64,000 nt of DNA from Candidatus Spongiihabitans sp. (GCF_965247905.1 NZ_OZ252047.1:124620-188619); one strand, 5' to 3'. Positions 5,174 through 45,442 are shown, counted from the first letter of the stretch. Notes: generated by a model from the sequence alone, not told the origin. A program made the numbers and translations.

Positions 5174-5853
5174 GGTTCAAGATACTTTAAGGTATAGTGA
5201 AATGGTCATACCTAATTGTTCTATAAATGAAAAACAAGGATGTCATTCGTTGCCGAATTTCCGAGAAGAAATTCAGGGCGATTCCACGGCTGTTTCGCCT
5301 TGATATCGAGGCTTGCAAAGTCGCACAAATCACTGGCATCTCTGGCCCGGCGACCAGCCGATTGTATATTCAAATCAGACAACGCATCGCCGGGCAATGC
5401 GAGCATATGTGTTCACTAATTCACTGCCCTGTTTTGTTCCTTTCCAGCGGTGTTTTAGCGCCGCCCTCTCGGCCGTCATTCTCGCATCGAACGGCGCGGC
5501 ATCAAAGCAAAGGAGTCCGGCTGCGCCGGACGGCATATTCCACTGGATTGCCCGGCCAATAATAATATGGGCCGGGCAATGACGAATTAAGGTAATAGAG
5601 CACGTTTTAATGTCACGCTTTGCGTGACACTTATTTACCATTGCCCCCTCAAAAGGACTCATCGCCTTCCGATTCACCGTTGTCCCCCCAGCCCGTCATT
5701 CTCGCCGCAGGCGGGAATCCAGTTAAAATATGTCGTCCGGCGTAGCCGGACCCCTTTGAAAGAGTGTGAGTTTCGCTTCCATATGCGCCACGAAAATGGG
5801 TGTCAATATCTGCTAAAATCTATCCGAAATCACCGCTTAAAGTATCTTGAACC
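5174..5853 (+). mobile_element. Non-autonomous IS1595-derived element, copy 1 (680 bp), with REP-like cargo
   Basis: TIRs GGTTCAAGATACTTTAAG / CTTAAAGTATCTTGAACC; 8-bp TSD ATTATTAA (5166-5173, 5854-5861); transposase N-terminal remnant MKNKDVIRCRISEKKFR and C-terminal remnant LKECEFRF. Confidence 0.9.
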
Positions 5854-5865
5854 ATTATTAAAATC

Positions 5866-5927
5866 GCCTAACTAAACACTCAAGCGGACGGGCAAAAACA
5901 GCCCGCCGTTTAGTTTTAATGTTATAT
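5866..5927 (+). other. attC-like integron recombination site
   Basis: GCCTAAC (RYYYAAC) ... central inverted repeat GCGGACGGGC/GCCCGCCGT ... GTTATAT (GTTRRRY-like); 62 bp. Confidence 0.7.
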
Positions 5928-5930
5928 GCT

Positions 5931-5959
5931 TTGACAACCGAGTCGTTACGCGTTACATT
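5931..5959 (+). promoter_or_regulatory. Sigma70 promoter of higBA (probably a leaderless transcript)
   Basis: TTGACA-17 bp-TACATT, ending 6 bp before the GTG start at 5966. Confidence 0.7.
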
Positions 5960-5965
5960 TCCTTC

Positions 5966-6244
5966 GTGATTAGAAGCTTCAGACACAAAGGGCTGGCAAA
6001 ATTTTTTGAAACTGGCGATACCGCAGGTATCCAGAATCAGCATGCAAAAAGGCTTCGTTTAATTCTCGGTAGATTGCATGTGTCTATTCAGCCACAAGAT
6101 ATGGGTTTGCCTGGATTACGGCTTCATGCGCTTTCTGGCAAACGAGCTGGTATTTGGTCGGTTTGGGTAAGCGGCAATTGGAGGATTACATTCCGCTTTG
6201 AAAACGGGCATGCCGAGACAGTCGATTATGAAGATTACCATTAG
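5966..6244 (+). CDS. higB: HigB (RelE/ParE superfamily) toxin
   Basis: [10 protein letters not shown]...LHALSG...[15 protein letters not shown]...DYEDYH signature. Confidence 0.92.
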
Positions 6245-6252
6245 GTGAAATT

Positions 6253-6570
6253 ATGCAAATGTTTAATCCCCCTCATCCTGGAGAAGTACTTAAAGCGCTT
6301 TGTCTTGAACCTGTCGGTATTTCTGTTACCGCTACAGCGAAGGCTTTGGGTGTTAGTCGTAAAACACTAAGTTCTATTTTAAACGGTCGTTCAGGTGTTA
6401 GCCCAGAAATGGCTATTCGCCTATCAATTGCTTTTGATACATCCGCAGAAAGTTGGCTTAATCAACAGTTGCACTACGATTTATGGCGGGCAGAAGAGCG
6501 CCGCAGTGAGCTTAATGTTCAAAAAGTTGTTGCGTCTTTAAGTCAAACTAATCAGCGTATAACAAGTTAA
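6253..6570 (+). CDS. higA: HigA antitoxin (HTH-XRE)
   Basis: [11 protein letters not shown]...LGVSRKTLS...SPEMAIRL...SAESWLNQQ. Confidence 0.92.
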
Positions 6571-6606
6571 TCCAGCTTACGGCGTCAGCTGATTGAAGCG
6601 TTATGC
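6557..6606 (+). other. Short or degenerate attC-like site closing the higBA cassette
   Basis: GTATAAC AAGTTAATCCAGCT...AGCTGATTGAAGC GTTATGC; GTATAAC is near-complementary to the upstream GTTATAT core. Confidence 0.55.
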
Positions 6607-6709
6607 GGCTGAAGAAACGAGATGAATAAGTTGTGTTTTTTGTCGAATTTGACGAATACCGACTGGGCTGCCTGGGTTCAGGCCGTTGGCTCTGTCCTAG
6701 CAATAATCG

Positions 6710-6942
6710 CAGCAATCCAAACGACATCAAAACCTTCGGCGTCGGCGCAACCTTCGTAACATCAACCGCGGTGGCGGAAGATGTCATCTACCAAATCGTC
6801 AAGGCGGTCTTCGATAATTTCGGAGATTTCAAAAAACTTCACCCGGCTTTCGGCGGGCTTGTCGAGTCCGAGATGATCAAAGATGTCTTGTCGGCGCCGC
6901 CGCGGCGCGGTTAAATACTACAAGGAACGCGGCTGGATGTAA
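6710..6942 (+). pseudogene. C-terminal fragment of a TAXI-family TRAP solute-binding protein
   Basis: KTFGVGATFVTS...VKAVFDNFGDFKKLHPAF, then a frameshifted GAVKYYKERGWM stop; no N-terminus present. Confidence 0.75.
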
Positions 6943-6956
6943 TCAAGCAAAACATC

Positions 6957-6981
6957 GGGGGGGGGCTTCGGCCCCCCCTTT
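6957..6981 (+). terminator. Rho-independent terminator-like hairpin
   Basis: G-run-CTTCGG-C-run hairpin followed by TTT. Confidence 0.6.
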
Positions 6982-7012
6982 GCACACAACTAACCAATTC
7001 ACATAAACGACC

Positions 7013-7357
7013 GTGCAACCTATCAAACACCTATCGTTCTTTTTTATCCCTTTTGTTATGCTTGTGGCCTGCAGTGAAAGCGAGGGACCAACAGGCGAGG
7101 AGCTAACAAAAGCCAGCGCGTCTGTTTACAATCAAGATATTCGCAAGGCAACAACAAGCAGGGATTTATCAAAAGCAGATTTGGCTTGGCATGCTCAGAA
7201 CACCTATGGGTGGGATTGTGCTGAAGTCGCATCAAAAAGGGAAAATACTTCTAGCGAGTACTTTATTATTGAGTGCGCCAGTGGAAAAAAACTCCGCGTT
7301 TATATGAGAGATGGAAAGCATCCTAAAATCACCAATGAAAGTGGCGGATACAATTGA
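7013..7357 (+). CDS. Hypothetical lipoprotein
   Basis: Hydrophobic signal peptide with lipobox LVAC; 114 aa. Confidence 0.6.
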   Translation: MQPIKHLSFFFIPFVMLVACSESEGPTGEELTKASASVYNQDIRKATTSRDLSKADLAWHAQNTYGWDCAEVASKRENTSSEYFIIECASGKKLRVYMRDGKHPKITNESGGYN

Positions 7358-7370
7358 AATGCTAATAACC

Positions 7371-7409
7371 ACATCCATACTCATGCCCAGCATGAGTATG
7401 GATGTTTTT
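7371..7409 (+). terminator. Perfect 16-bp stem hairpin between convergent genes
   Basis: ACATCCATACTCATGC-CCA-GCATGAGTATGGATGT followed by a T-run. Confidence 0.7.
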
Positions 7410-7437
7410 ATAAGAAATATACAATGAAATGAATATT

Positions 7438-8298
7438 TTACTTATCTAGGACAGCCCTATCTATTTCAGGCTTGGTCCCCAATGCGAGTTCTGTTACAAA
7501 TCCATGCAGGTTGTTCACGATCTGGTCGCTCTGCAGATTTTGCTCCAGTCCTTGTGCGATGCGTTCTATCAGTGCCGAGCCCACCACGGCGGCGTCGGCG
7601 ATGGATGAAATTTTGCGCACTTGTTGTTTGGTTTTGATGCCAAAGCCGACCGCGATTGGCAATGAAGTTTGACTTCTTATCCGGCGGATGGCGGTGTTCA
7701 CATCGGATGGTTGCGCCGAGCGCGTGCCGGTGATGCCGGCGATGGAAACATGATAGACGAAGCCGGAACTATTTTTCAGCACCGTCTTGAGCCGTGCGCG
7801 ATGCGTGGTCGGGGTGGTCAGCCGAATCCAGTTTAAGCCGGCGGTCAGGCAAGGATGGCACAGTTCGTCGTCCTCTTCCGGTGGCAGGTCAACGATGATC
7901 AGGCCATCCACGCCGACGCTGATGGCATCGTCCAAAAACCGTTGATTGCCGTAATGATAAATCGGGTTGTAGTAGCCCATTAATACGATGGGCGTTTGCG
8001 CGTCGCGCTGGCGAAACTGCGCCACCATGTCCAAGGTTTTAACCAAAGTCATGCCGCTTTTTAGCGCGCGCAGGCTGGCGGCTTGAATGGCCGGGCCGTC
8101 GGCCATCGGGTCGGAAAATGGCATGCCCAATTCAATGATATCCGCCCCGGCCGCGGGCAAGCCGTCCAAGATTTTTTGCGCGGTGTCGGCATCGGGATCG
8201 CCGGCGGTGGTGAACGTGATTAAGCCCGCGCGCCCGGCGGATTTGAGTTGCGCGAACCGCTGCGCCAGCCGTTCGCCGCGCATGACTTTTGTCATCAT
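7438..8298 (-). CDS. trpA: Tryptophan synthase alpha subunit
   Basis: [32 protein letters not shown] motifs. Confidence 0.97.
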
Positions 8299-8350
8299 AA
8301 CGGCATGCTCATAACTTCAGGTTCATAACTTTACGCTCATAACTTCACGC
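8295..8350. repeat. Four degenerate 14-bp tandem repeats at the trpB stop / trpA start junction
   Basis: TCATAACGGCATGC TCATAACTTCAGGT TCATAACTTTACGC TCATAACTTCACGC. Confidence 0.75.
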
Positions 8351-9593
8351 CGAGGGCATCGGCCACGGTGAATACATCCTTGTCGCCGCGGCCACACAGG
8401 TTCATGACAATAATTTTATCCTTCGTCATCGTGGGCGCAATTTTGGCGACCTGGGCCAGCGCATGCGCCGGCTCCAAGGCGGGGATGATGCCCTCGGTGC
8501 GGCAGCACAACTGGAACGCATCCAGCGCCTCAGCATCGGTAACAGAGACATATTGCACCCGCCCGATTTCATGTAGCCACGAATGTTCGGGCCCGATGCC
8601 AGGGTAATCCAGGCCAGCAGAAATGGAATGGGCATCGCAAATCTGGCCGTCGTCATCTTGCAAAAGATAAGTGCGATTGCCATGCAATACCCCGGGCTTG
8701 CCGCCGCTCAGCGAGGCCGCGTGTTGCCCGGTATCGATGCCATGGCCAGCGGCTTCAACGCCGATGATGGCTACGGCTTCATCGTCAAGAAAGGGATGAA
8801 ATAGACCGATGGCATTCGAGCCGCCGCCAATGCAAGCCAACAGGGTGTCTGGCAATCGATTTTCTTTTTCAAGAATTTGCTGCCTGGTTTCTCTGCCAAT
8901 GACGCATTGAAAATCACGCACCATTTCTGGATACGGATGGGGTCCGGCTACGGTGCCTATAATATAAAAAGTATCCTCAACATTTGACACCCAATCGCGC
9001 AATGCTTCATTCATGGCATCTTTTAAGGTCGCGGTCCCGCTGGCCACCGGTATGACCTCGGCACCCAAAAGTTTCATACGAAATACATTCGGCGCCTGGC
9101 GCTTGATGTCGGTCTCGCCCATATACACCACGCACGGCAAATCGAATAAGGCGCAGACGGTCGCGGCGGCGACGCCATGCTGGCCAGCGCCGGTCTCGGC
9201 AATGATGCGCCGTTTGCCCATGCGCTTGGCCAGCAAAATTTGTCCAAGGGTGTTATTAATCTTGTGCGCGCCGGTGTGATTCAGTTCATCACGCTTGAAA
9301 TAAATCTTGGCGCCGCCGAGTTCCTGGGTCAGGCGTTCGGCAAAATAAAGCGGGCTGGGCCTGCCGACGTAATCCTTGGCGTAATAATCCAACTCCTGCA
9401 GAAAATCCGCGTCATCGCGATATTTATTGTAGGTGGTTTCCAGATCGAGAATAAGCGGCATTAAGGTCTCGGCCACGAATCTGCCGCCGAAAATCCCGAA
9501 GTGCCCGCTATCGTCCGGACCGGATCGAAATGATTCTGGGCGAACTGATTCAGGCTCAAGACTGTCCATTAAGTTTTTGCTTGCGTTAGCCAT
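8337..9593 (-). CDS. trpB: Tryptophan synthase beta subunit
   Basis: [40 protein letters not shown]. Confidence 0.98.
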
Positions 9594-9660
9594 GTCAAAT
9601 TGTGATTAAAAACAAACACCGGATTATACAGATTCAAACCAGAAAAGACCGGCTGTACAA

Positions 9661-10006
9661 GAGTCTATTCCAATCCTAAAATGATACTGAACAAGGGGTT
9701 ATCGTTGGGGTGGCGGGGGTGATTCTTGGGCTCAGCGAAGCCGCGCTGTTTGATGCGAGAATCCAGACGCGGCGAAGCCGCGATAAAAGGAGTTCGGCTT
9801 CGCCGAACGGTTTAATAACTGGATTGCCCGGAACAAGCCGGGCAATGACGGATTGGGATACAATGGTAAATCGGAAGGCAATACTCCTTGTGAGACGCCA
9901 AAAGTGATCGAGAAAAAACTGTCAGCGAAATAGTGAACATATACAATTGCCGAAGTTCCCCGTCCAGTCCCGTTATCTCCAGGCCCGTCATTCCCGCGCA
10001 AACGGG
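9661..10006. repeat. Composite intergenic repeat: 31-bp IS-end-like motif plus REP modules shared with the IS1595-derived elements
   Basis: 9662-9692 is identical to 33515-33545; AAGGAGTTCGGCT.CGCCGAACGGTTTAATAACTGGATTGCCCGGAACAAGCCGGGCAATGACG is near-identical to ~22329-22391. Confidence 0.75.
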
Positions 10007-10184
10007 ACACCACATGAGCGCAGGGCTGCCAGCGGACCCATGATCATTGCCGGCCACACGATGGCTTGGATTGACGCCGCCGATGGCGCGCTGTCGGCAA
10101 CCCGCCCTGGCGACCTGATTTTGTCTCATATGCAGTGAACCCGGGCAATGCATGGACTTTTGAAAAAGGGGCTTTTATACTCCT

Positions 10185-11382
10185 ATGTTCACTGGCGCCA
10201 TGGCCCTGAGCAGCCTGCTGCCCAACCCGGCCTTGGCTTGCCCGCGCAGACAATCCCTCAACGTGGATAGCCGAGTGCTTGAAGTGCACGGCAAGCCGGC
10301 CAAGGTGTTTTCGCTGCTCAATCAGGGCGGCACACCCGGCCTGACACTCGATCCCGGTCAGCCCTTTAGCGTCCGTGTCTATAACCGGAGCGCCGCTTCG
10401 ACCGTCATCCACTGGCATGGACAAACCCCGCCCAACGACCAGGATGGCGTGCCGGATCTGACCCAGCCACCGATTAAGCCCGGCGCTTCTTATGATTACG
10501 ACTTCATGCCGCGCCCGGGCACGCACTGGATGCATTCCCACGTTGGCCTGCAGGAGCAGCGGCTTCTGGCCGCGCACAGCACCATGGACATGGACATGAA
10601 CATGAACATGGAAGGCATGGCTGGAATGGAGAATATGGCCGGGATGGAGGGCATGAGCGGGATGGTCCATCTCAACGATGTCGAATACGATGCCTACCTC
10701 GCGAACGACCGCACGCTTGACGATCCGGAAGTCATCCGGGTTGAGCTGGGCGGGCGGGTGCGGGTTCGTCTCATCAACGCGGCCAGTGCGACCAACTTCA
10801 CGGTTGATCTGGGTGAACTGCAAGGCCGTGCCGTGGCCGTTGACGGCAACGCCATCGCGCCCCTTGCCGCTCGGCGATTCCCCCTCGCCATCGCGCAGCG
10901 GCTTGATATCGAAATTGACCTGCCGGCTGGGAATGGCGCTTGGCCGGTCACGGCAATTCGTGAAGGCGCGGCGGCGCGCACCGGAATCGTGCTGGCCACC
11001 AGGAACGCGACGATTGCGAAACTGGCCGCCGAGGCGGACGAGCAAACCGGGCCGATAGACCCGATGTTCGAGCAACGCCTCCGACCCGCAACCCGGTCGC
11101 CCGCGCAAACCGCCGACCGGGCGAATATGTCACGCTGACGATTGGCAATCCAACCAGCATGGCGCACCCCACCCCATGCATCTGCACGGCGCGCATTTTC
11201 AGGTGCTGGCGCTCAATGGCAAACGATACGCCGGCGCCTTCCGCGATACGCTCCTGGTCCCAGCCAAAGGCATGGCGACAATCGGATTCCAAACCGATAA
11301 TCCCGGTCGCTGGGCCTTTCACTGCCACAATCTTTACCACATGGCGCAAGGCATGATGACGGAGGTGCGCTATATCGCCTGA
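10185..11382 (+). pseudogene. Multicopper oxidase (CopA/CumA-like), eroded
   Basis: Copper ligands HWHG, WMHSH, HP-MHLHG, FHCHNLYHM; Met-rich insert; apparent internal deletions and a 5-bp CACCC duplication near 11165-11175 split the frame. Confidence 0.8.
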
Positions 11383-11649
11383 ACCGCCTGTTGGAGAGAA
11401 ACGGTCGGGGCTGGTCGCGATGCCTTGCCCGCCCCAATCAAACTGCAGCCAATCAAGCCATCACCGACCATCGGCAAACTCGCTGACGCTGCCACAGCGG
11501 CAACGAGTCCTTCAACGACTGTGGGCATCCCTAACCCCCCAGTCCTTTTGACTGATGGGTGACCGAAAAAATACTGAATAGATTTATATCTTGTGGCGGT
11601 CCTGGATAACTACGTCATATCATCTCTAACCCATTGTTTAAATTGATTT

Positions 11650-11825
11650 AATATTAGAAGTAAATAAACTGTCCAGATTTGTAACGCGCAGATTGCCCGC
11701 TTTCGTTGGTTGCACAATCTGACCCTGTGAGTCATATCGGGCTAACCGTCTTGGCCGATACATGATCGATAAACCACCATCAAGGTGCCTGATGACCTCT
11801 ACCGTGACCTTCATGTAATGATGCT
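11650..11825 (-). mobile_element. Remnant of an ISNCY (IS1202-like) transposase 3' end with its right end
   Basis: HHYMKVTVEVIRHLDGGLSIMYRPRRLARYDSQG followed by GCGGGCAATCTGCGCGTTACAAATCTGGACAGTTT, resembling ISNCY ends. Confidence 0.55.
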
Positions 11826-11869
11826 GAAAAGCGGCATCCGTTCCCAACACCACCGCGGAGCGTATCGCA

Positions 11870-12202: not shown

Positions 12203-12231
12203 TTGACATAAACTAATCTCTGGACTATACT
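12203..12231 (+). promoter_or_regulatory. Sigma70 promoter upstream of the riboswitch and metZ
   Basis: TTGACA-17 bp-TATACT. Confidence 0.75.
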
Positions 12232-12237
12232 TCTGTT

Positions 12238-12292
12238 TCAGCGCCGATTTGATTATCAGCTTGCGGGCGCTTAAAAATACGGCTAAAGAGTC
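12238..12292 (+). ncRNA. SAM-II (SAM_alpha)-type riboswitch aptamer
   Basis: AGCGCC-GATTTG...TTGC-GGGCGCT-TAAAAAT..GCTAAAGAG matches the SAM-II layout; lies directly after the promoter and upstream of a Met-biosynthesis gene. Confidence 0.75.
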
Positions 12293-12424
12293 GCAGAACA
12301 AACCTGCTTTTTGCCTTGGCTTTTTGGCCTTTAGCACATCTCAATAGCAAAGCTGGAAGCGGGTTTTTTATGCCCGCGTCAATCATATGCAGATAAATAT
12401 GCGGATAATATTGAGGCGCGAAAA

Positions 12425-13621
12425 ATGTCAAAACAGTCACAAAAATACCACCGCCAGACTACGGCAATACGATGCGGTCATCGTCGGACTGCCGAGCAGG
12501 AGCACAACGAACCGATCTTCGCGACCTCGAGCTATGTTTTTGAAAATGCTCAGCAGGCAAGCGATCGGTTCAGCGGCGAGCAAGCGGGCAATGTTTACTC
12601 CCGATTCACCAACCCCACGGTAGCCGCATTCGAGGCGCGCCTGGCGGCCATGGAGGGCGCGCAATATTGCGTCGCCACCGCTTCGGGCATGGCGGCAATC
12701 TCCGGTCTGGTGCTTGCCTTGCTCAATGGCGGCGATCACATCGTCGCATCAACCGGCTTGTTCGGGTCGACCGTGTCGTTGTTCACCAAGTATTTCAGCC
12801 GCTTCAATATCAACACCACCTTCGTTAGTTTGACCGATATAGAACAGTGGAAACTTGCAATCCGACCCAATACCAGGCTGATATTTTTGGAAACCCCGTC
12901 AAACCCGCTGTGCGAAATCGCCGATATTGCCGCCATCGCCGCCATCGCCGACCAAGCAGGCGCGTGGCTGGCAGTGGATAACGCATTTTGCACGCCGGTG
13001 CTGCAACAGCCATTCTCGCATGGCGCGCACATCGTGGTGCATACTGCGACTAAATACCTTGATGGACAGGGCCGTTGCGTGGGCGGCGCGCTGGTGACCA
13101 ATGATGAAAAAATCTATGATGAATTGTTCGCCATGCTGCGCACTACCGGGCCGTGCCTGAGTCCGTTTAATGCGTGGACTTTTAGCAAAGGGTTGGAGAC
13201 GCTGGAGTTGCGAATGAAACAGCACTGCGAAAATGCGCTGACCGTGGCGCAATGGCTGGAGGCGCATCCGGCGGTCAGCCGGGTTTACTACCCGGGGCTT
13301 GCCTCCCATCCCCAACGAAAATTGGCGCAATCCCAGCACAGTGGATTTGGCGGCATTGTCTCGTTTGAAGTCAAGGGTGTGAAACACGAAGCTTGGCAAG
13401 TCATCGACGCCACCGAGTTCATATCCATCACCGCCAATCTGGGCGACACAAAAACCACCATCACCCATCCTGCGAGCACCACCCACTCAAGAATTACGCA
13501 ACAGCAACGCGACCGCGCGCGCATAACGGATTCATTGATTCGAGTTGCGGTGGGCTTGGAACATGTTGACGACATCATCGGCGACCTGAAAATCGGCCTA
13601 GACAAAATTAGTCATGAATAA
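12425..13621 (+). CDS. metZ: O-succinylhomoserine sulfhydrylase
   Basis: EHNEPIFATSS, YSRFTNPT, TASGMAA, ETPSNP, HTATKYLDGQGR, ITANLGD. Confidence 0.93.
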   Translation: MSKQSQKYHRQTTAIRCGHRRTAEQEHNEPIFATSSYVFENAQQASDRFSGEQAGNVYSRFTNPTVAAFEARLAAMEGAQYCVATASGMAAISGLVLALLNGGDHIVASTGLFGSTVSLFTKYFSRFNINTTFVSLTDIEQWKLAIRPNTRLIFLETPSNPLCEIADIAAIAAIADQAGAWLAVDNAFCTPVLQQPFSHGAHIVVHTATKYLDGQGRCVGGALVTNDEKIYDELFAMLRTTGPCLSPFNAWTFSKGLETLELRMKQHCENALTVAQWLEAHPAVSRVYYPGLASHPQRKLAQSQHSGFGGIVSFEVKGVKHEAWQVIDATEFISITANLGDTKTTITHPASTTHSRITQQQRDRARITDSLIRVAVGLEHVDDIIGDLKIGLDKISHE

Positions 13622-21934: not shown

Positions 21935-23114
21935 ATGCGGGAATCGGGTGTGGACGGCAATAAACAGCGTTACCGGCAACTGGCATTAAAAAAGGTTCAA
22001 GATACTTTAAGGTATAGTGAAATGGTCATAACTAACTGTTCTATAAATGAAAAACAAGCATGTCATTCGCTGCCGAATTTCGGAGAATAAATTCAGGGCG
22101 ATTCCACGGCTGTTTTGCCTTGATTCGAGGCTTGCAAAGTCGCTCAAATCACTGGCATCTCTGGCCCGGCGACCAGCCGATTGTATACTCAAATCAGACA
22201 ACGCATCGCCGGGCAATGCGAGCGTATGTGTTGTCTGATTCATTGCCCGTTTTGTTCCTTTCCAGCGGTGTTTTAGCACCGCCCTCTCGGCCGTCATTCT
22301 CGCATCGAACGGCGCGGCATCAAAGCAAAGGAGTTCGGCTACGCCGAACGGTTTAATAACTGGATTGCCCGGAACAAGCCGGGCAATGACGTCCCTTATT
22401 TGCCGGGCAATGACGACCCTTATTTGTCATTCTCGCAGGCAGGCGGGAATCCAGAGTGGCGTAGCCGCCGGTTGTGTCACGCTTTGCGTGACAATTATTT
22501 ACCATTGTCCTCTCAAAAGGACACATCGCCTTTCGATTCACCATTGTCCCCCCAGCCCGTCATTCTCGCCGCAGGCGGGAATCCAGTTAAAATATGCCGT
22601 CCGGCGTAGCCGGACTCCTTTGAAAGAGTGTGAGTCTCGCTTCAATATGCGCCACGAAAATGGGTGTCAATATCTGCTGAAATCTATCCGAAATCGACCG
22701 CTTAAAGTATCTTGAACCTTAAAAAAACCGGAAGCCTATGAGGATTTTCCGTTCAAACTGGATGTGGCGGTCTATAAAGTGCGCGGGAAAATGTTTGCCA
22801 CGTTGTCCCGAGTGCAAGGTATTTGGAACATGAATCTAAAATGCGACCCCAATCAGGCACAATTATTCAGGGAAATTTATGATGCGGTCATTCCAGGATG
22901 GCATATGAACAAAAAACACTGGAATACGCTTTTGCTGGATGGGTCGATACCGGAAAACGAAATCCAATACATGATTGATCACTCTTATATGCTGGTAGTG
23001 CAAGGGCTAATGAAAACTGATCGGCAATACCTGGCGTTAAGGTACAGTGAACTGGAACTTTATGGGCTATCCACTGACCGAATGTGGCACGCAGGCGGAT
23101 CGAGTCTGAAGTAA
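21935..23114 (+). pseudogene. MmcQ/YjbR-family DNA-binding protein interrupted by the element at 21994-22718
   Basis: Removing the element and one TSD joins MRESGVDGNKQRYRQLALK to KPEAYEDFPFKLDVAVYKVRGKMFA...NLKCDP...PGWHMNKKHWNT in frame. Confidence 0.85.
21994..22718 (+). mobile_element. Non-autonomous IS1595-derived element, copy 2 (725 bp)
   Basis: Same 18-bp TIRs; TSD TTAAAAAA (21986-21993, 22719-22726); transposase end remnants; REP cargo differs from copy 1. Confidence 0.9.
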
Positions 23115-23176: not shown

Positions 23177-24688
23177 ATGCAATTTTTTAGTTTCATTGAT
23201 GACTCCCAGGCGCAAGCCGTTCACCAAGCGTCCTTGGAGATACTGGAGGAAACCGGGCTGCTGGTGCGCAACGAAAAAGCCCGGCGTCGATTTGCCGAGT
23301 TTGGCGCCAAGCCAGACCCCGATTCCGAGATCGTGAAAATCCCGTCTGCTGTGGTTGAGCATTTCCGTTCGATGGTGCCGCCGACCATTACCTTTCGTGC
23401 GCGTAATCCTGATTACGATATTACCTTTCCGAGAGAGTTGCCAGTCATTGCCACCGCGAGTTCGGCGCCGGATATTGTCGACCCGGTAAGCGGGATTGCT
23501 CGTCGAGCCACGTCGCACGATATTGCGAATATCGGGCATCTGGTTAATCACTTGTCTGGATTCGATGTGTTTTCCATATCGGTATTGGCGGATGATGCCC
23601 CGAAAGATCAATTCAGCCTGTCGCGGTTTTATCCGGCGCTGAAGAATTGCATAAAACCGGTGCGCACCTCGGTCATCGATGCGCGTGAAGCACGGCAGGT
23701 GCTGAAACTGGGCGAGTTGATCGCCGGCTCGAAAGAAGCCTTTTGGCAACGCCCGTTCATCAACTTCGGCTACTGCTCCATCGTTTCGCCCTTGACCATG
23801 GACTACGACAGCACCGAAATGCTGATGTTTTACGCCGAGAATGGCATCACCGCCTATGGCACCATTGCGCCGATGGGCGGGCTCAGCACGCCGTTGACCC
23901 TGGCCGGGATGTTGACCATAATGAACGCGGAGTGGTTGGCGGCGGCGACCTTGGCGCAAATGTCCAGGCCCGGGACGTCGCTGATCTACAATTTCCTGCC
24001 GGTGTTCGCGGACATGCGCGATGGCGCCTATGCGCCGGGGGCTATCGAGATCGGCATGATGAATGCCGCAGTGTGTCAAATGGGGCGGTATTATAATGTC
24101 CCCTCGGGCGGTTATCTGGGGCTGACCAACTCGAAGATCAGCGATGCCCAAACCGGGTTTGAAAAAGGCATGTCACCGCTGTTGGGCGCGGTATCCGGGG
24201 TCGGATTCATCGTGATGGGTGGGTTATTGGATGCCTTGATGTCGTTTGATTTTGGGCAGGTTGTTATTGACAACGAAATTGCGCTGATGATCAAGCGGGT
24301 GCGGCAGGGATTCGATTTTTCCACAGAAAACATGGCGCTGGACGAAATCAAGAAGACCGGACCGGCCGGGGTGTTTGCCGCCAATCCTGAAACTCTGGAG
24401 CGGATGACCACCGCTACTTTTATGCCGGAAATAGCAGATCGAAAGTTGCGTGAAACCTGGGCCGAAGAAGGGGCTTCCACGAGCCATCAACGGGCCATGG
24501 ACAAGGCGCTGGATATTCTGTCGACCACCAATGTCGCCGCGCTGGATGAACCGGTGGATGCACAGATACGCGCCGAATTCGATGATTTGGTCAAGGGTGA
24601 CTCGGTGCTGCCTGAGGGCTGGGCGCGAACGCAGGCGGTGAAAGAGGCGCGCAAACGGCGCATTAATCGGCGTCGCTTGGCCAGCTGA
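23177..24688 (+). CDS. Trimethylamine methyltransferase (MttB) family protein, non-pyrrolysine type
   Basis: VHQASLEILEETG, ARNP, TPLTLAG, DMRDG, SKISDAQTGFEK, VIDNEI; no in-frame amber codon. Confidence 0.85.
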   Translation: MQFFSFIDDSQAQAVHQASLEILEETGLLVRNEKARRRFAEFGAKPDPDSEIVKIPSAVVEHFRSMVPPTITFRARNPDYDITFPRELPVIATASSAPDIVDPVSGIARRATSHDIANIGHLVNHLSGFDVFSISVLADDAPKDQFSLSRFYPALKNCIKPVRTSVIDAREARQVLKLGELIAGSKEAFWQRPFINFGYCSIVSPLTMDYDSTEMLMFYAENGITAYGTIAPMGGLSTPLTLAGMLTIMNAEWLAAATLAQMSRPGTSLIYNFLPVFADMRDGAYAPGAIEIGMMNAAVCQMGRYYNVPSGGYLGLTNSKISDAQTGFEKGMSPLLGAVSGVGFIVMGGLLDALMSFDFGQVVIDNEIALMIKRVRQGFDFSTENMALDEIKKTGPAGVFAANPETLERMTTATFMPEIADRKLRETWAEEGASTSHQRAMDKALDILSTTNVAALDEPVDAQIRAEFDDLVKGDSVLPEGWARTQAVKEARKRRINRRRLAS

Positions 24689-24780
24689 ATTTTCCCAGCG
24701 CAACAGCCATGTCCGATAACAGCCCGGGCCCGATTTCCCGCTCAGTGCCGCATTGCCGTTATTGGCGGCGACCGGTATTG

Positions 24781-26835
24781 TCAGGTTACCCGCATTCCAG
24801 GCACGGCGCCGTCATCCGGGCTAAGCAGATACAAATCCTCTCCGCCTGGCCCGGCGCACAGAACCATCCCTTCGGACACGCCAAACTTCATCTTTCGCGG
24901 CGCCAGGTTGGCGACCATCACGGTCAGCCTGCCGTCTAATTGTTCAGGCCGGTAAGCGGACTTAATGCCGGCGAACACATTGCGGGTCTCATAGCCAAGA
25001 TCGAGGGTGAGTTGCAACAATTTATCCGCGCCATCAACCGTTTGCGCTTTCAGGATTTTCGCGATGCGTAAATCCAGTTTGGAAAAATCATCCATATTGA
25101 TTTGCTCGGCAACAGGCGACTCAGCCAGTGGCCGCTTGACGTTATCTGCGGCTTGATCTTTTTCCTGATCGGCCTTGGTTTCACCGATCATGTTTTGGAT
25201 TGACTGGTTTTCGATTCTGGTCAGCAAGGGCTTGAAACGATTGATTTCGTGATTCAGCAACGGCATCCGGCTGTCGGCCCAGGTCAATGGCGCGATCTGC
25301 AAAAATTGCTCCGCGTTTTCCGCGGTGCGCGGCAAAACCGGTTTCAAATAGATGATCAACAATCGAAATAAATTGAGCCCCTGGGTACAGACAGGCTGCA
25401 CTTGCGCCCTTGTTTCATCCTCCCTGACCAGAACCCAGGGCTTTTGGCGGTCGATATACTGGTTCGCCTTATCGGCTAAAGCCATAATCTCTCGCATTGC
25501 TTTGTGATATCGTCTCGACTCGAAAGCTTCTGCAATACTATCTCCTGCAACCACAAATTGATCGAACAGCTTTTGATCGGGCAAGGAATCGCTCAACTTG
25601 CCGTCGAAGTTTTTCGAAATAAAACCGGCGCAACGGCTGGCGATATTAACTAGTTTGCCGACCAGATCGGAATTCACCCGGGTTTGAAAATCGTCCAGAT
25701 TGAGGTCAAGGTCATCAATGGAATTATCCAGTTTGGCGGCAAAGTAATAGCGTAGATATTCTGGATTGAGGTGGTTCAAATAAGTCCTGGCAATGATGAA
25801 AGTGCCTCTCGACTTGGACATTTTCTGGCCATTTACGGTCAAAAAACCATGTGCCCATACCCCATCTGGGGTGCGAAAATCCGCACCATACATCTGCGCC
25901 GGCCAGAACAGGGTATGGAATCGGGCGATATCCTTGCCAATGAAGTGGTAGAGTTCGCATTCGCTGCCCACGTTGAAGTATTCATCAAAATCCAGATTTT
26001 CGCGGTCGCACAGGTTTTTGAAGCTGGCCAGATAGCCGATGGGGGCATCCATCCACACGTAAAAGTATTTGTCCGTCTCGCCTGGAATTTCAAAGCCCCA
26101 ATAAGGCGCATTGCGCGAGATATCCCATTCGAACACTTCTTCGTCGAACAACTCCTTTTGCTTGTTGGCGATTTCCCGTTGCGTATGGCCTTCGAGCCAG
26201 TTCAACAGAAAATCCTTGAAATCACCGAGTTTGAAGAACAGTTGCTCCGATTCGCGCTGCACCGGGGTCGCCCCCGAGAGCACGGATTTTGGCTCAATCA
26301 AGTCGGTCGGCGCATAAGTGCTGCCGCAAACTTCGCAATTGTCGCCGTATTGATCCGCGGATTTGCATTTGGGGCAGGCGCCGATGACAAAGCGATCGGG
26401 CAGAAACATTTGTTTTTGCGGATCGAAAAGCTGTTTTATAGTTCGTCGGGCAATATGTCCTTTGTCATTGAGGCGCTGATAAAACAACTCGGAAAAATAT
26501 TTATTCTCCGGGGAATGGGTGCTGTAATAGTTATCAAAAGAAATCAGGAATTCATCAAAATCACGTTTATGTTCTATGCTGACTCGATCGATTAGTTCCT
26601 GGGGGGTGATGCCTTCTTGCTCCGCTTTGAGCATTATCGGCGTGCCATGAGCATCATCAGCGCACACCAGATAACATTCGTGTCCGCGTAACCGTTGGAA
26701 TCGGGCCCAGATGTCGGTTTGAATATATTCCAATAAGTGGCCCAGATGGATTTGACCGTTGGCATAGGGCAAGGCACTGGTGACCAGGATTTTTCTGGTG
26801 GCCGGAGTTTTTCTAATGGGATGCGTCATGGACAT
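24781..26835 (-). CDS. metG: Methionine--tRNA ligase
   Basis: [13 protein letters not shown], Zn-knuckle CPKC/CEVC, KMSKS, C-terminal tRNA-binding domain. Confidence 0.97.
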
Positions 26836-35502: not shown

Positions 35503-35512
35503 GATGCGACCA

Positions 35513-37912: not shown

Positions 37913-37938
37913 AAGCGAACATGACAATGGCAAACGGC

Positions 37939-38889
37939 TCAAATCGTGGAATGCGCCTGCACATCGGCGTGGTAGGACGATCTGACCATCGCTCCAGACG
38001 CGACATTGGCGAATCCCAGCGCCGCTCCAATCTCGCCCAATTCCGCAAATTCGTCCGGATGCCAATACCGTTGCACCGGTAAATGGTGGCGGCTGGGCTG
38101 CAAGTATTGTCCGAGGGTGAGCATTTCCACCTCATGCCGGCGCAAATCCTTCATTACCTCGATCACTTCATCGCGGGTTTCGCCGAGCCCCAGCATGATG
38201 CCAGACTTGGTCGGCACAGCCGGTTGGTTTCGCTTCATGCGTTGCAAAAGATCCAGCGAATATTGATAGTCCGCTCCCGGTCGCGCCTGTTTATACAATC
38301 GCGCCACCGTCTCCAGATTATGATTGAACACATCGGCCGGGGATTTTTCCAGAATCTCCACGGCAACGTCTATTCTGCCGCGAAAATCCGGCGTGAGAAT
38401 CTCAATTTTCGTATTTGGACACCGAGATCGAAGCGCGCGGATACACGCTACAAAATGGGTTGCGCCGCCATCGCGCAAATCATCGCGATCCACGGAAGTG
38501 ATGACCACATAGTTCAGGCCCATCGCGGCCACGGTTTCAGCGAGATTGCGCGGTTCATCCGCGTCCAGCGGGTTCGGGCGGCCGTGCGCGATAGCGCAGA
38601 ACGGGCAGCGCCGGGTGCAAATATCGCCCATGATTAAAAATGTCGCCGTGCCGTTGCCGAAGCATTCGCCGAGATTGGGACAGGCGGCCTCCTCGCAAAC
38701 GGTGTGCAATCCTTTTGACCGCAGTATTTTCTTGAGTTCCGAAACCGCTGGAGTGCCGGTGAAACTGGCGCGAATCCATTGCGGTTTTCTGAGCAGTTGG
38801 TGGCGCGCCAAGGGCGCAATTTTAACCGGAATGCGCGCCATCTTCGCGGCGCCGCGCAACTTCTCGCCTTTTACAATTGTTGTCGCCAT
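37939..38889 (-). CDS. lipA: Lipoyl synthase
   Basis: [27 protein letters not shown]. Confidence 0.97.
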
Positions 38890-38916
38890 ATTGTTATCCG
38901 TAGAAAAAAATTATCC

Positions 38917-39054
38917 TATCCGCAGATGACGCAGATTAACGCAGATAAAAAAAAGATTAATATTTGGATTGAAAAAAGCCATGCTTATCAATTTTGTAAC
39001 AACTCGTCTTGCATATAAAATTAAATCTGTGAAAATCTGCGTCATCTGCGGATA
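38917..39054. repeat. MITE-like inverted-repeat element (TATCCGCAGATGACGCAGAT...ATCTGCGTCATCTGCGGATA)
   Basis: ~30-bp terminal inverted repeats around an AT-rich spacer; second copy at 46783-46861. Confidence 0.8.
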
Positions 39055-39059
39055 ATTCT

Positions 39060-41918
<2,859 letters not shown>

Positions 41919-42013
41919 GGCGACTCCTGTTAGTTATGAGTTATGGTGATGCGGTGGCACATTAATATGTGGCGTGATGGTGGTGACGGCGACGGTGACA
42001 GGCGAGTTCATCG

Positions 42014-42388
42014 TCAATCCAACTCATCAACAAACTTTTTATACGCATCCGCGTCCATCAAGTCGTCAAGTTGCATCGTGTCATCGGCGCTCAGTTTATA
42101 AAACCAGCCATCGCCCTCGGGCGCATCGTTGACCAGTTCGGGCGCGCCATCCAGGTTGTCATTACGCTCGGTCACCGTGCCAGACAGCGGCGACTTGACA
42201 TCGGACGCGGCTTTGACCGACTCCACCACCGCGGCGTCATCGCCTTGCGCCAGCGTCGCGCCGACCGCGGGCAACTCGACGTAGACGATTTCGCCTAACT
42301 GCTCTTGGGCGTAGTCGGTGATGCCGACCGTATGCGCGCCGTCCTGCTCGCGCACCCATTCATGATCTTTGGTGTATTTAGTTGTCAT
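42014..42388 (-). CDS. gcvH: Glycine cleavage H protein
   Basis: YTKDHEW, GITDYAQEQLG, VESVKAAS (lipoyl Lys). Confidence 0.97.
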   Translation of the reverse strand: MTTKYTKDHEWVREQDGAHTVGITDYAQEQLGEIVYVELPAVGATLAQGDDAAVVESVKAASDVKSPLSGTVTERNDNLDGAPELVNDAPEGDGWFYKLSADDTMQLDDLMDADAYKKFVDELD

Positions 42389-42442
42389 CTGGTTACCTCG
42401 GTTTGGTTTTGACAGGGATTCGCTGTACGCGAGTATAAATTA

Positions 42443-43603
42443 TCAGCGGTAAAAATTGGGCGCCACGAACGGCAGTTTGGCGACCGTCACCGGCAGCAGT
42501 CGACCGCGCACGCGCGCTTGCAACGCGGTGCCGAGCGCGGCGTGTGCAAGGGCGACATAGCCCATGCAAATCGGCTTGCCGAGGCTGGGACTGAAGCCGC
42601 CGCTGGTCACCATGCCGACCGACTCCACATGGTCATCGCCGCCGTCGCTGGCAAAAAGTTCCGCGCCTTCGCGGATGGGCGCGCGTCCGTCCGGTAGCAG
42701 TCCGACTCGACGGCGTGCGCTGTGGTTCGGGATTTGCGGCAAAATAATGTCATCACCGGGAAAGCCGCCGGCGCGCTCGCCGCCACGGCGTCTTGCTTTG
42801 GACACGGCCCATAACAGATTGCCTTCAATCGGGGTGGTTGCGGTAGTAATATCGTGGCCATACAAACATAAACCGGCTTCCAGGCGCAACGAATCCCTGG
42901 CCCCCAACCCGACCCATTTGACCGCGGCGTCGGCCAGCAAGCGGCGTGCCACTTGTACGGCGTGCGCCGCCGCCATGGAGAGTTCAAAGCCGTCCTCGCC
43001 GGTGTAGCCCGAGCGCGAAGCGATGCAGGCGACGCCGTCAATATTCAACTCGCGCACACCCATAAACTTCATCTCGCCGAGGTCGTGACCGATATCGCAG
43101 CCGAGATTCGTCAGCACCGTGGCCGCGGCCGGGCCCTGCAACGCCAGCAACGCCAAGTCGTCGGCCAAGGCGAGTTGCTGGGTGGGCGCGAGGTGCTGTT
43201 GCAAATGCGCGAAATCGTTCGCCTTGCACGCGGCGTTGACCACCAGATTGAAATGCTCGCCCAAGTTCTGCACCATTAAATCATCAATGATGCCGCCATC
43301 GTCGTTGGTCAGCAGCGCATATTTCTGGCGCTGGCGCGGCAGCGCAACCAGGTCCACCGGCATCAGCGTCTCCAGCGCGTCCGCGGTACGCTCGACGCAC
43401 CCGTCTTTATCGCGCACCGAAATCTGCCCCATGTGCGAGACATCAAACAAACCGGCCGCCGCGCGGGTATGCAGATGCTCCTTGATGATGCCGTCGGGGT
43501 AGTTCACCGGCATTTCATAGCCGGCGAACGGCACGATTTTTGCGCTGGCCTCGCGGTGCAAGTCAAACAGCGCGGTGCGTTGCAGATTTTCGGATGAGTT
43601 CAT
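42443..43603 (-). CDS. gcvT: Aminomethyltransferase (T protein); likely start ATG 43603
   Basis: PFAGYEMPV, LFDVSHMG, SGYTGEDGFE, GARDSLRLEAGLCLYG. Confidence 0.95.
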   Translation of the reverse strand: MNSSENLQRTALFDLHREASAKIVPFAGYEMPVNYPDGIIKEHLHTRAAAGLFDVSHMGQISVRDKDGCVERTADALETLMPVDLVALPRQRQKYALLTNDDGGIIDDLMVQNLGEHFNLVVNAACKANDFAHLQQHLAPTQQLALADDLALLALQGPAAATVLTNLGCDIGHDLGEMKFMGVRELNIDGVACIASRSGYTGEDGFELSMAAAHAVQVARRLLADAAVKWVGLGARDSLRLEAGLCLYGHDITTATTPIEGNLLWAVSKARRRGGERAGGFPGDDIILPQIPNHSARRRVGLLPDGRAPIREGAELFASDGGDDHVESVGMVTSGGFSPSLGKPICMGYVALAHAALGTALQARVRGRLLPVTVAKLPFVAPNFYR

Positions 43604-43635
43604 TATCGAATGAGGACCGTCATTGCATATATTTT

Positions 43636-44586
43636 TCATTTTTCGGCACGCAGGTTTTTCGTGGATTGGCGATACTCGGCGCATGTTTCCAGATAACGCG
43701 CTGTGCTCACCGGCATCGGCACGCGCACATTTGCAATCCAGGTCATTAAATCTTTTCCCGAGCGCAACAAGATTGTGCCGCGTTTGATGTGTCTTTCCAA
43801 CTTATTGTTTGCATTTTCGGGAATAGTGGCGCGAAAGTCGAGGATTTTTTCGCCGTCAGCGATAAATTCCGGCCATATCGCCAAATAGTTTGGATCGCTG
43901 CGAAGGATTTCACATTCGTATTTGGCGATGCCGATGAAATCTTCCACCAAGGGCTTTGCTTGGGAGAACCATTGCAGGCAACAAAGCGTGGCTTGAATGG
44001 TCTCTCCGACTCGGTCAATTTCGCGCATGGCTTGGGCGATTTTGCGGTAGCGGCTACAGTAGTAATCGGCGATGGACATGGTGAACACTTTCACCGGCTC
44101 GCCCCAAAGCTCGTCCACGCCTTCTTCGCCGCTATGATGTTTTACATTGCCGGACAACGACAGGGCTTCCGAGAAACAACTGGAGCATTGACGCATGAAA
44201 TCATCGTCTTTGGTGATTTTGATGCCGCTTTCTTCAAGATCAACAATGGCAGTGAATATATCCGTGGCGCGATTAAACAGCGCGCCGGCCAGCATGGCGG
44301 CATTGACCCGCTTTCGATCAGGATTACTTTCGTTTTCATATGCCGCCCGAACCTCATCCAACTTTTCCCCGGGCGTGTTAATGCCGGGTTCGGTATGATG
44401 AAAGGTGCGGCGGGTCAGGGCGTCCAGCAGTTTCTTTTTTTCGGTGAGGGTTTCTTGCGGGGGCGGATAATAGCGAATCCAGTAGTCATCGTAAAAGATA
44501 TGCGCCACGCCATCGGTTTTGCTGATGGTGCCGTTTTCGATCTGAGTATTTTCCTCGATGGTCATTTTTGTTCGGAGACTTCGCAT
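43636..44586 (-). CDS. Hypothetical protein (~310 aa), co-oriented with gcvTHP
   Basis: Long ORF with protein-like composition; no family recognised. Confidence 0.7.
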   Translation of the reverse strand: MRSLRTKMTIEENTQIENGTISKTDGVAHIFYDDYWIRYYPPPQETLTEKKKLLDALTRRTFHHTEPGINTPGEKLDEVRAAYENESNPDRKRVNAAMLAGALFNRATDIFTAIVDLEESGIKITKDDDFMRQCSSCFSEALSLSGNVKHHSGEEGVDELWGEPVKVFTMSIADYYCSRYRKIAQAMREIDRVGETIQATLCCLQWFSQAKPLVEDFIGIAKYECEILRSDPNYLAIWPEFIADGEKILDFRATIPENANNKLERHIKRGTILLRSGKDLMTWIANVRVPMPVSTARYLETCAEYRQSTKNLRAEK

Positions 44587-44781
44587 AATAAACTTGTTTC
44601 AAGGGTGCAGTCGCGAACCCTGCGGAAAATTCTCTTGTTCAGCCCGATTTGGACAATATTTTAACATGATTGTACATTTTGCCTGTTGTCATTAGATGTG
44701 CATCAGCTGGAAAATTCATAAAAATCCATATTTAAAGAGGCATCCTAATGAAGTCATGGCTATTGTGCGGTAATCAAAAAA

Positions 44782-45442
44782 GGTTCAAGATACTTTAAGG
44801 TATAGTGAAATGGTCATAACTAACTGTTCTATAAATGAAAAACAAGTATGTCATTATTTGTCATTCTCGCCGGCAGGCGGGGATCCAGAGTGGCGTAGCC
44901 GCCGGTTGCGTCACGCTTTGCGTGACAATTATTTACCATTGTCTTCTCAAAAGGACACATTGCCTTCCGATTCACCACTGCCCCCCAACCCGTCATTCTC
45001 GCCGAAGGCGGGAATCCAGTTAAATATCTGTCACGCAAAGCGTGACTCTTTTTGGCATCCGGCTTTGCTAGACACAAACCGGCGGCTTCGCCGCATAAGG
45101 AGTCCGGCTACGCCGGACGGCATATTCCACTGGATTGCCCGGCCAATAATAATATGGGCCGGGCAATGACGAATGATAAGTAATAGAGCACGTTTTAGTG
45201 TCACGCTTCGCGTGACACTTATTTACCATTGTCTTCTCAAAAGGAATTATCGCCTTCCGATTCACCATTGTCCCCCCAGCCCGTCATTCTCGCCGCAGGC
45301 GGGAATCCAGTTAAAATATGTCTTCCGGCGTAGCCGGACCCCTTTGAAAGAGTGTGAGTTTCGCTTCAATATGCGCCACGAAAATGGGTGTCAATATCTG
45401 CTAAAATCTATCCGAAATCGACCGCTTAAAGTATCTTGAACC
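44782..45442 (+). mobile_element. Non-autonomous IS1595-derived element, copy 3 (661 bp)
   Basis: Same TIRs; TSD TCAAAAAA (44774-44781, 45443-45450); only ~7 codons of the transposase N-terminus remain; cargo module is duplicated. Confidence 0.9.

Follow-up and report, generated by a model that had tools for sequence, protein, structure and literature searches.

Three mobile elements in a 64,000-nucleotide (nt) stretch of DNA from Candidatus Spongiihabitans sp. (NZ_OZ252047.1:124620-188619), here called the window, consist of the two ends of an insertion sequence (IS) enclosing an array of repetitive extragenic palindromes (REPs). We refer to the elements as shells and to their interior as cargo. 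The explanation that we hold, with considerable confidence, is that the shells are deletion derivatives of an IS of the IS1016 subgroup, similar to MITEs (miniature transposable elements with inverted repeats), that captured an array of CGTC-tagged REPs and amplified it, and that the array was diversified by recombination between its repeats. The genome that holds the window, G000, is a single 3.03-Mb contig without N and with 51% G+C; positions are those of the window unless given as G000:C1.

Anatomy of the three window copies

The 18-bp terminal inverted repeat (TIR), GGTTCAAGATACTTTAAG, has exactly six matches in the window, none being expected in a shuffled window. The matches form three inverted pairs, at 5174/5836, 21994/22701 and 44782/45425, and each pair is surrounded by an exact 8-bp target-site duplication (TSD) of its own, namely ATTATTAA for copy 1, TTAAAAAA for copy 2 and TCAAAAAA for copy 3. 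The perfect TIRs and exact AT-rich duplications described in a first-pass annotation of this DNA are thus confirmed. The features of the three copies, and of a repeat unit outside them, are as follows.

5174..5853 (+), copy 1 of the shell, 680 bp; TIRs 5174-5191 and 5836-5853; TSD ATTATTAA at 5166-5173 and 5854-5861
5174-5405 (+), left IS arm of copy 1; remnant open reading frame (ORF) starting at 5227, with 59 IS-derived codons
5406-5471, L2 segment of copy 1
5507-5585, unit with B hairpin of copy 1
5611-5692, W segment of copy 1, with GTCACGC hairpin
5693-5758, inverted unit with A hairpin of copy 1
5759-5853, right IS arm of copy 1
9769..9851 (+), free single repeat unit outside any shell; GCGGC..GCCGC hairpin, TTCGGC..GCCGAA hairpin and short-loop B hairpin (CGTC-type REP)
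21994..22718 (+), copy 2 of the shell, 725 bp; TSD TTAAAAAA at 21986-21993 and 22719-22726
44782..45442 (+), copy 3 of the shell, 661 bp; TSD TCAAAAAA at 44774-44781 and 45443-45450

When the three copies are aligned, their left ends are near-identical, as are their right ends (~250 bp), and their interiors are unlike. The arms and junctions of copy 2 are those of copy 1, and its interior holds a short-loop B hairpin, an additional half-B and an additional A hairpin; the interior of copy 3 consists of two array periods. As had been claimed, only the ends of a transposase gene are left: 59 N-terminal codons are retained in copies 1 and 2 and 7 in copy 3, and the last ~95 nt, with the LKECEFRF..MRHEN tail, in all three. 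The remnant ORF at 5227-5559 has no Pfam match, and nt 188-600 of the parent IS described below are absent. Hairpin modules do stand in place of this DDE core. Compared with shuffles, three of the four module stretches fold as DNA into stable hairpins (z about -5 to -6.3), and the fourth, at 5690-5760, folds more weakly (z -2.55; 3 of 200 shuffles fold equally well). At gathering thresholds no Rfam family matches the elements, the sole match lying elsewhere.

The inner inverted repeat reported for copy 1 (5509-5546 versus 5719-5757) is real, with arms at 5508-5539 and 5727-5758 (32 nt, 91% complementary), and corresponds to two basic repeat units face to face. In copy 3 the transposase remnant had been said to stop at a GTCATT; its left IS arm indeed ends at parent position 31, at a GTCATTC that is common to the IS and the A module. 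The break is a 231-232-bp deletion between the IS-native GTCATTC and the GTCATTC that opens an A module, and the same deletion is found in element E2102758. The modules said to occur free at 9780-9850 are present as a unit at 9769-9851.

The shell family across the genome

Among the seven genomes of the genus, the exact TIR occurs 133 times in G000, twice each in G004 and G002, and not at all in the other four. By pairing inward-facing TIRs with up to 2 mismatches, we obtained 65 complete shells in G000, which range from 368 to 1686 bp (median 808) and make up 1.73% of the genome, plus 23 solo ends. Exact 8-bp TSDs flank 50 of the 65 copies. Of these duplications 47 are distinct, and together they are 92.7% A+T, compared with 48.7% A+T genome-wide; A is favoured immediately before the duplication and T immediately after it, and only 2 of the 50 insertion sites fall within a long open frame. 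That length stays at 661-725 bp, as was noted earlier, is true of the three window copies but not of the family: because only 10 of the 65 copies fall within this range, the near-constant length in the window is a coincidence.

Mobile insertion cassettes consist of IS ends around one or more passenger genes. Between the ends of the shells there is no passenger protein-coding gene; the interior is made of repeat modules, and the longest ORFs are repeat read-throughs. The remnant N-terminal ORF appears to evolve neutrally, with no sign of function or selection seen: at the three codon positions there are 195/190/256 differences, and of the 60 copies in which a start can be recognised, 47 have all 59 codons open. 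The shells have the defining features of MITEs, i.e., no transposase gene, TIRs, a TSD, many copies and IS-derived ends, and their lengths lie above the 70-300 bp given for MITEs in one source (PMC3733652, available in part) and at or above the 50-800 bp given in another (PMC11602168). They also have the TIRs and the 7-9-bp, usually 8-bp, A/T-rich TSD of the IS1016 subgroup (PMC12561309, available in part). The PF12762 DDE transposase with its catalytic pattern, as found in autonomous IS1595/IS1016 elements, is absent from the window elements.

Parent IS and single origin of the shells

The Pfam DDE_Tnp_IS1595 profile has 18 matches in G000, only one of which belongs to the shell lineage. This parent fossil (G000 516195-516892) has an exact right TIR, the N- and C-terminal peptides of the shells, two in-frame stops and a degenerate left end without left TIR; its C-terminal part matches PF12762 (E 2.8e-8). 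The sister species G004 contains one intact 731-bp IS with the identical 18-bp TIR, a TSD (TTAAAATA) and an open 224-aa gene, which matches PF12762 (E 5.8e-25) and contains the pattern DESYFG..HINGIENFW..KECEFRFN. This pattern is quoted for IS1016 elements in the available part of PMC12561309, where the duplications of the subgroup are given as A/T-rich and 8 bp (7-9 bp, usually 8). Judged by its sequence, the parent is an IS1016-subgroup (IS1595-family) element of ~731 bp, fossil in G000 and intact in G004. An intact transposase between the same TIRs, which had been named as a thing to look for, is thus present in the sister species but not in G000. Outside G000, the highest-ranking relatives of the C-terminal part of the parent, 78-87% identical, are in metagenome-assembled genomes of Candidatus Oxydemutatoraceae and Candidatus Poriferihabitaceae.

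We mapped each of the 65 elements on the fossil parent. In all 65 copies the right junction maps to parent nt 601 or 603; the left junction maps to nt 187 in 48 of them. The other 17 left junctions mostly leave shorter arms (five at nt 166, two at nt 31, including copy 3), with two longer ones (nt 191); in two shells no left-arm match extends past the TIR. Because the right junction is the same in 65/65 copies and the main left junction in 48/65, we conclude that the shell arose once and that the DDE core (parent nt 188-600) was lost once; later erosion of the IS arms ran from the inside. The earlier description of the elements as non-autonomous IS1595-family derivatives is therefore upheld, by junctions mapped on the parent and by the PF12762 parent in G004, and is narrowed to the IS1016 subgroup.

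The other IS1016-type elements of G000, which form groups of 219, 221 and 232 aa, have different ends; those of the 232-aa paralogue, considered as a possible cross-mobilising transposase, agree with 13 of the 18 TIR positions in a comparison made by eye. Four further PF12762 matches with identical scores each lie in a 316-aa open frame (G000:C1:196088, 326508, 1528607 and 1890506). One translated member has a zinc-ribbon-like N-terminus, and an inverted-repeat search of this group gave no TIR. These frames represent a second, probably active IS1595-family element.

The cargo is made of CGTC-tagged REPs

The basic unit of the cargo, ~75 bp long, comprises two hairpins, a small one (TCCGGC/TTCGGC..) and a larger one, with a spacer between them; the larger is either of type A, ATTCTCGCC..GGCGGGAAT, or of type B, ATTGCCCGG..CCGGGCAAT. 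Two modules that had been listed separately, with GTCATT and AATCCAG as their bounds, are variants of one design. An iterated nhmmer profile of the unit has 591 matches in G000, 259 of them inside paired shells.

As published, CGTC-tagged REPs are defined by an unpaired CGTC (or TGTC) tag at one end, a stem of 8-9 bp that begins with A-T pairs and a short CCA tail, with loop exceptions in some taxa (PMC3733652, available in part). In the cargo, the large hairpins have an unpaired CGTC or TGTC tag. Their stems (ATTCTCGCC/GGCGGGAAT and ATTGCCCGG/CCGGGCAAT) are 9 bp and start with AT. The tag is CGTC in 169 and TGTC in 40 among about 207 A-type elements, and CGTC in 202 and TGTC in 44 among about 247 B-type elements, i.e., about 82% CGTC and about 18% TGTC overall; a CCAG tail follows in 207 (A) and 239 (B) elements. 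The loops, of 3-4 nt in A and of 6 or 16-19 nt in B, depart from the 4-5 nt of the class. Because tag, stem and tail match the published definition, the cargo hairpins are classified as CGTC-tagged REPs, the class that includes the dRS3 repeats of Neisseria, in arrays like those of the Neisseria intergenic mosaic elements (NIMEs). That the cargo is REP-like had been proposed, and on these features the proposal holds.

The modules are also found outside the shells, where they form 102 free arrays in G000. Of 209 A hairpins, 134 (64%) lie in shells, 30 near a solo TIR and 45 are free; for the 237 B hairpins the corresponding numbers are 92 (39%), 31 (within 1.5 kb of a solo TIR) and 114. The L2 segment, which adjoins the left arm, is in shells in 49 of 58 cases, near a solo TIR in 3 and free in 6. 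At all four loci that we compared with congeners (G000:C1:1396145, 1400773 and 2175366-2176219; window 9769), free arrays adjoin an end of the synteny with G004 or G002, and at these four loci no clean insertion boundary or target signature is readable. This small sample suggests that free arrays are associated with rearrangement or island boundaries. In one region, G000:C1:519900-536800, STAND-like ATPases (AAA_22/AAA_16) of 329-417 aa are the products of a group of about ten paralogues, and REP arrays lie between the paralogues, with some adjacent pairs lacking one; the same architecture recurs about every 7 kb. These arrays recall the NIME arrays around variable genes.

The shells inserted as units

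In G004 the target of copy 1 is uninterrupted and contains a single ATTATTAA, i.e., it is a precise empty site. For copy 2, the two flanks overlap in G004 by exactly 8 bp, which is again a precise empty site. Copy 3 is absent from G004 and G002, where the adjoining flanks have diverged; across genomes, then, empty and filled states can be matched for two of the three sites. We also compared the interiors of the 65 shells, aligning the 435 of 2080 pairs with a length difference of at most 60 bp. Sixteen elements fall into four groups (of 6, 4, 4 and 2), within each of which the interiors are collinear and the loci differ; the other 49 are singletons. Thus, as the individual TSDs, the empty sites of copies 1 and 2 and the interior groups demonstrate, each shell inserted as a unit together with its cargo, as had been supposed from the duplications.

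In the public run X3, one 181-nt contig joins position 5165 to 5854 with 8 ambiguous letters, and with only 23 and 30 letters on its sides, short of the 31 required; this is a hint of the empty site of copy 1 in another sample. In run X1, one contig, with a depth of about 4800 and 36 letters on its shorter side, links position 5793 of the right arm back to 5164, immediately ahead of the left TIR. This joint could be a tandem or circle junction, or the flank of another copy.

The cargo is collinear and changes by repeat-bounded indels

To describe the order of the cargo, the 65 oriented elements were tokenised. They give 51 distinct strings that follow one grammar: the module after h1 is B in 76 of 85 cases; after B comes A (56) or h3 (29), and after A comes h1 (66), h3 (48) or h4 (19). 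Directional modules have the same orientation in 224 of 226 cases, the pair 'A h1' precedes the right arm in 53 of the 65 elements, and the 102 free arrays show the same transitions as the shells. The interiors are structurally very diverse, with 53 architectures among the 65 copies; the copies differ mostly by gains and losses of whole periods and by alternative linkers, and one shell contains three tandem periods of 180 bp. Module order and number had also been thought to differ between copies. Number and linkers do vary, but order and orientation are collinear, and shells and free arrays have one periodic grammar in common, so that the cargo is not shuffled as the first-pass annotation had it. 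That is, the cargo is collinear and periodic, and fast-changing in copy number and linkers.

Pairs of elements that differ by one pure indel (98 pairs) represent 87 distinct events. Exact direct repeats of at least 6 bp bound 30 of the 87, compared with 1.8% of random placements; they include GTCCGGC, GTCATTC(TCGCC), ACTGGATTGCCCGG and GCCGGGCAATGAC. This pattern is as expected from unequal recombination or slippage among repeats, and it is also compatible with a hairpin-specific enzyme.

A second recombination process had been proposed, and RAYT (REP-associated tyrosine transposase)/Y1 genes flanked by the module repeats were to be looked for. Five PF01797 matches in G000 are Y1/RAYT-like genes. 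Their flanks carry unrelated inverted repeats and there is no basic unit within 600 bp of any of them, and we rejected the RAYT link for all five. An IS110/Piv-type recombinase is likewise unsupported, the single match in G000 having a stop (pseudogene). Among these five Y1/RAYT-like genes and one IS110 match, none could be linked to the modules. The RAYT-like genes at G000:C1:14736-15443 and 24218-24931, and also at 2143464-2144129, have their own inverted repeats (of GGGTCAGAGTAGAAAT type and GGGGACACAA type); they are a separate REP system of this genome.

Proposed history of the shells and its alternatives

In the history that we propose, one ancestral event would have swapped the DDE core of the parent for a piece of an intergenic mosaic array, which would have consisted of CGTC-tagged, dRS3-like REP hairpins and the spacer segments between them. 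About 65-90 copies of the chimera, with both 18-bp ends kept, would then have arisen at AT-rich 8-bp targets, most of them intergenic, presumably with transposase supplied in trans, the cognate IS being fossil in G000 and intact in the sister species. Unequal recombination, slippage and probably gene conversion between the repeated modules would have diversified the interiors with order and orientation kept; such change would be fast because the interior is a periodic array of short palindromes that are found hundreds of times elsewhere. Erosion of the IS arms would have proceeded from the inside, at microhomologies that they share by chance with the modules, such as the GTCATTC of copy 3, and no dedicated second enzyme would be needed.

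Several observations weigh against this history. The arms of different copies are typically ~94% identical, with a low tail that is distorted by truncated copies, and identity over the whole element reaches 98.7% in the best pair; because of these values, the burst is not a very recent one. G000 has no intact cognate transposase, so that current mobility is at most conjectural. Exact boundary repeats are missing from 35 of the 87 indel events; replacement, gene conversion or a true insertion of modules may play a part as well. Finally, a unit made of the GTCACGC hairpin and B occurs 28 times free and never in shells, and over 100 B hairpins are distant from every TIR, with none in the six congeners. 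Modules therefore also spread without a shell, by a mechanism that lies outside the proposed history.

A true two-tier system is one alternative. Here the IS shell would disperse the arrays, and at the CGTC hairpins a dedicated site-specific recombinase or transposase would insert, delete and exchange modules, within shells as well as at free sites. The modules at more than 100 loci outside shells that are absent from the six congeners are what such an enzyme would leave, as are unit types confined to free arrays, the many indel breakpoints inside the hairpins themselves and the position of free arrays at the ends of synteny blocks in the four loci examined; moreover, a recombinase that acts on the hairpins has been suggested for Neisseria dRS3, where a phage-encoded one is known to integrate (PMC1797815, available in part). 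However, the genes examined above offer no candidate enzyme, breakpoints within repeats are equally expected from homologous recombination or slippage, and order and orientation are conserved rather than scrambled. We therefore regard a dedicated second enzyme as unlikely. Of the two-tier mobile system that the first-pass annotation had suggested, the first tier stands, in that the shell spreads the arrays; the second stands as rapid restructuring, but not as dedicated machinery.

In a further alternative, empty MITE-like shells transposed first and REP modules invaded each of them later, the shells being preferred landing pads. REPs are described as insertion hot spots that are able to spread alone; a 155-bp cargo-less MITE of the same IS ends exists in G055, a genome of another genus (see below); and interiors differ in almost every copy. 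Independent invasions would not, however, give 53 of 65 elements that end in 'A h1' and 224 of 226 modules in one orientation. Nor do they agree with IS/cargo junctions that are identical in 65/65 copies on the right and 48/65 on the left, or with the finding that none of the 65 pairs in G000 is cargo-less, the shortest (368 and 380 bp) still holding modules. Later invasion is thus very improbable.

An artefact of assembly or annotation, with collapsed or chimeric repeats, is conceivable for elements so repetitive that the short-read contigs of public runs break inside them, and has next to no probability given a single 3.03-Mb contig without N, unique flanks and an own TSD for each copy, precise empty sites in an independent genome (G004) and contigs of run X1 that span both element/flank boundaries of copy 1.

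Distribution and probable transfer between genera

Among 69 genomes of the family, the TIR with at most 1 mismatch occurs 143 times in G000, 19 times in G055, twice each in G004 and G002, and once in G048. The B hairpin pattern is found only in G000 (232) and G055 (88), as is the exact-type A pattern (205 and 93, respectively); five other genomes of the family contain related GTCATTCCCGC..GCGGGAATCCAG variants. The methionyl-tRNA synthetase protein of G000 is 90% identical to that of G004 and 71% identical to that of G055. Because the IS arms and modules of G000 and G055 are, at the nucleotide level, 91-99% identical, as against this 71%, the comparison indicates that IS and modules were probably transferred horizontally between the two lineages.

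G055 has three full-length copies of the IS, all with broken frames that could be assembly errors. One of them, L114 (C1:276706-277445), has a premature stop (..PIIR, then stop) at the same codon as the fossil of G000 (C1:516574 region); the copy that was transferred may already have been dead, or else the stop is tolerated or recoded. The cargo-less MITE mentioned above, L119 (C3:939572-939726, 155 bp), is made of only the left and right ends of the same IS, so that this IS has given rise both to a classical MITE and to the cargo-bearing shell. No complete shell is present among the 19 TIR matches of G055, and fragments in this genome carry the IS/cargo junctions of the G000 shells. That the L2 segment is free in G055 and mostly shell-bound in G000 hints that the chimera formed in a G055-like background. 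G055 also has, at C2:67807-69067, a free tandem array in which six identical B hairpins recur with a strict period of 246 bp.

A wider idea, which we offer tentatively and with more doubt than belief, is that CGTC-type REPs spread within and between genomes by riding in the IS1016-derived shell, that the chimera or its parts crossed the genus boundary and seeded the whole family of repeats in the species of G000, and that shells serve as nurseries for arrays that recombine into free sites. This hitch-hiking would fit because the exact A and B variants occur only in the two of 69 genomes that have many TIRs (143 and 19), because fragments of G055 carry the same junctions, and because 78% of A hairpins (164/209) are either inside shells or close to a solo TIR. 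It would also fit the 91-99% identity of arms and modules between these two genomes. Such a vehicle finds suggestive support in this co-occurrence, which concerns two genomes only, G000 and G055.

Relation to known systems

In the pneumococcal BOX element, a bacterial MITE, the internal repeat block is variable. The nearest precedent among the descriptions consulted is 'BrickBuilt' of Porphyromonas gingivalis (PMC4596501, available in part), a MITE that contains a minisatellite. The shells resemble it in being non-coding, with inverted ends, many mostly intergenic copies and a variable number of interior modules. They differ in that they are larger (median 808 bp), their ends, which include transposase remnants, can be traced to one particular IS, and their interior is a sample of a genome-wide REP mosaic (259 of 591 units in shells) rather than a private minisatellite.

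Elements of the IS1016 subgroup, such as ISApl4 (712 bp; available part of PMC12561309), are like the shell lineage in their ends, their A/T-rich 8-bp TSD and the size (731 bp) and transposase of the parent; in the window shells, by contrast, parent nt 188-600 are replaced and there is no DDE core, hence no autonomous movement. REPINs and RAYTs (PMC3116915 and PMC3337134, each available in part) provide another parallel, namely short palindromic inverted pairs spread as non-autonomous DNA. In that system the same REPs surround a single-copy Y1 gene, whereas no such arrangement was found in G000, where other repeats flank the RAYT-like genes and the shells spread via DDE-type ends with an 8-bp TSD.

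The CGTC-tagged REPs of Neisseria are the dRS3 repeats, which occur in large clusters; the class apparently has no dedicated transposase, and no enzyme that mobilises it is known, according to the available part of PMC3733652. In NIMEs, which are specific to Neisseria, dRS3 hairpins (ATTCCCN8GGGAAT) surround RS elements of 50-150 bp, with dynamic repeat number (PMC1797815, available in part). The cargo shares with them the tag, the 9-bp stem, the CCA tail, mosaic arrays with spacers of ~50-150 bp and variable number and length, the variable or rearranged loci and the lack of a dedicated transposase. It differs in that the strict ATTCCCN8GGGAAT occurs only 7 times in G000 (177 times in a relaxed form), in its loops (3-4 nt in A and 6-19 nt in B, not 4-5), and in that 64% of A and 39% of B hairpins lie inside TIR-bounded units, which do not figure in the available parts of the NIME descriptions. 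A Neisseria identity was rejected; G000 is without the Neisseria uptake sequences, nine dialects of which give 0-1 matches.

Searches of the open-access literature gave no description of an IS-derived shell with REP-array cargo. The earlier statement that no description is known therefore holds for the combination but not for the parts: IS1016 ISs, MITE-like derivatives, CGTC REPs with dRS3 and NIMEs, and MITEs with variable repeats are all known, and it is the MITE-like IS derivative with REP-array cargo that is apparently new. REP/NIME-type repeats are abundant and shape recombination, transcription and genome rearrangement. G000 offers a concrete case in which REP arrays are packaged between functional-looking IS ends and copied about 65 times, with IS and modules common to a genome of another genus, and the shells are a possible vehicle for REPs that have no known transposase. 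This packaging makes a hitch-hiking route of REPs testable, and the 65 copies are a natural experiment on the rate of REP-array restructuring, with 53 architectures at roughly 5% nucleotide divergence. If only repeat recombination is involved, the family is still a clean, well-resolved example of a MITE-like family forming around captured host DNA.

Other features of the window

A GGGGACACAAAC motif lies at 5149-5160, just left of copy 1. At 10027-10150 there is a different repeat of ~120 bp, unrelated to the shell modules, which has many copies at 76-85% identity in the congeners G002 and G004. The sole Rfam match, a SAM_alpha (SAM-II) riboswitch, is at 12231-12307 (+), upstream of the ORF 12425-13621, and scores 37.2 bits against a gathering threshold of 36. 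Two very large adjoining ORFs, of 1121 and 1133 aa, occupy 56366-63108 (+). The first of these has partial SNF2-helicase matches, far under the cut-offs, to DISARM DrmD, DpdE and a phospholipase-D anti-phage model, and the region may be a defence island.

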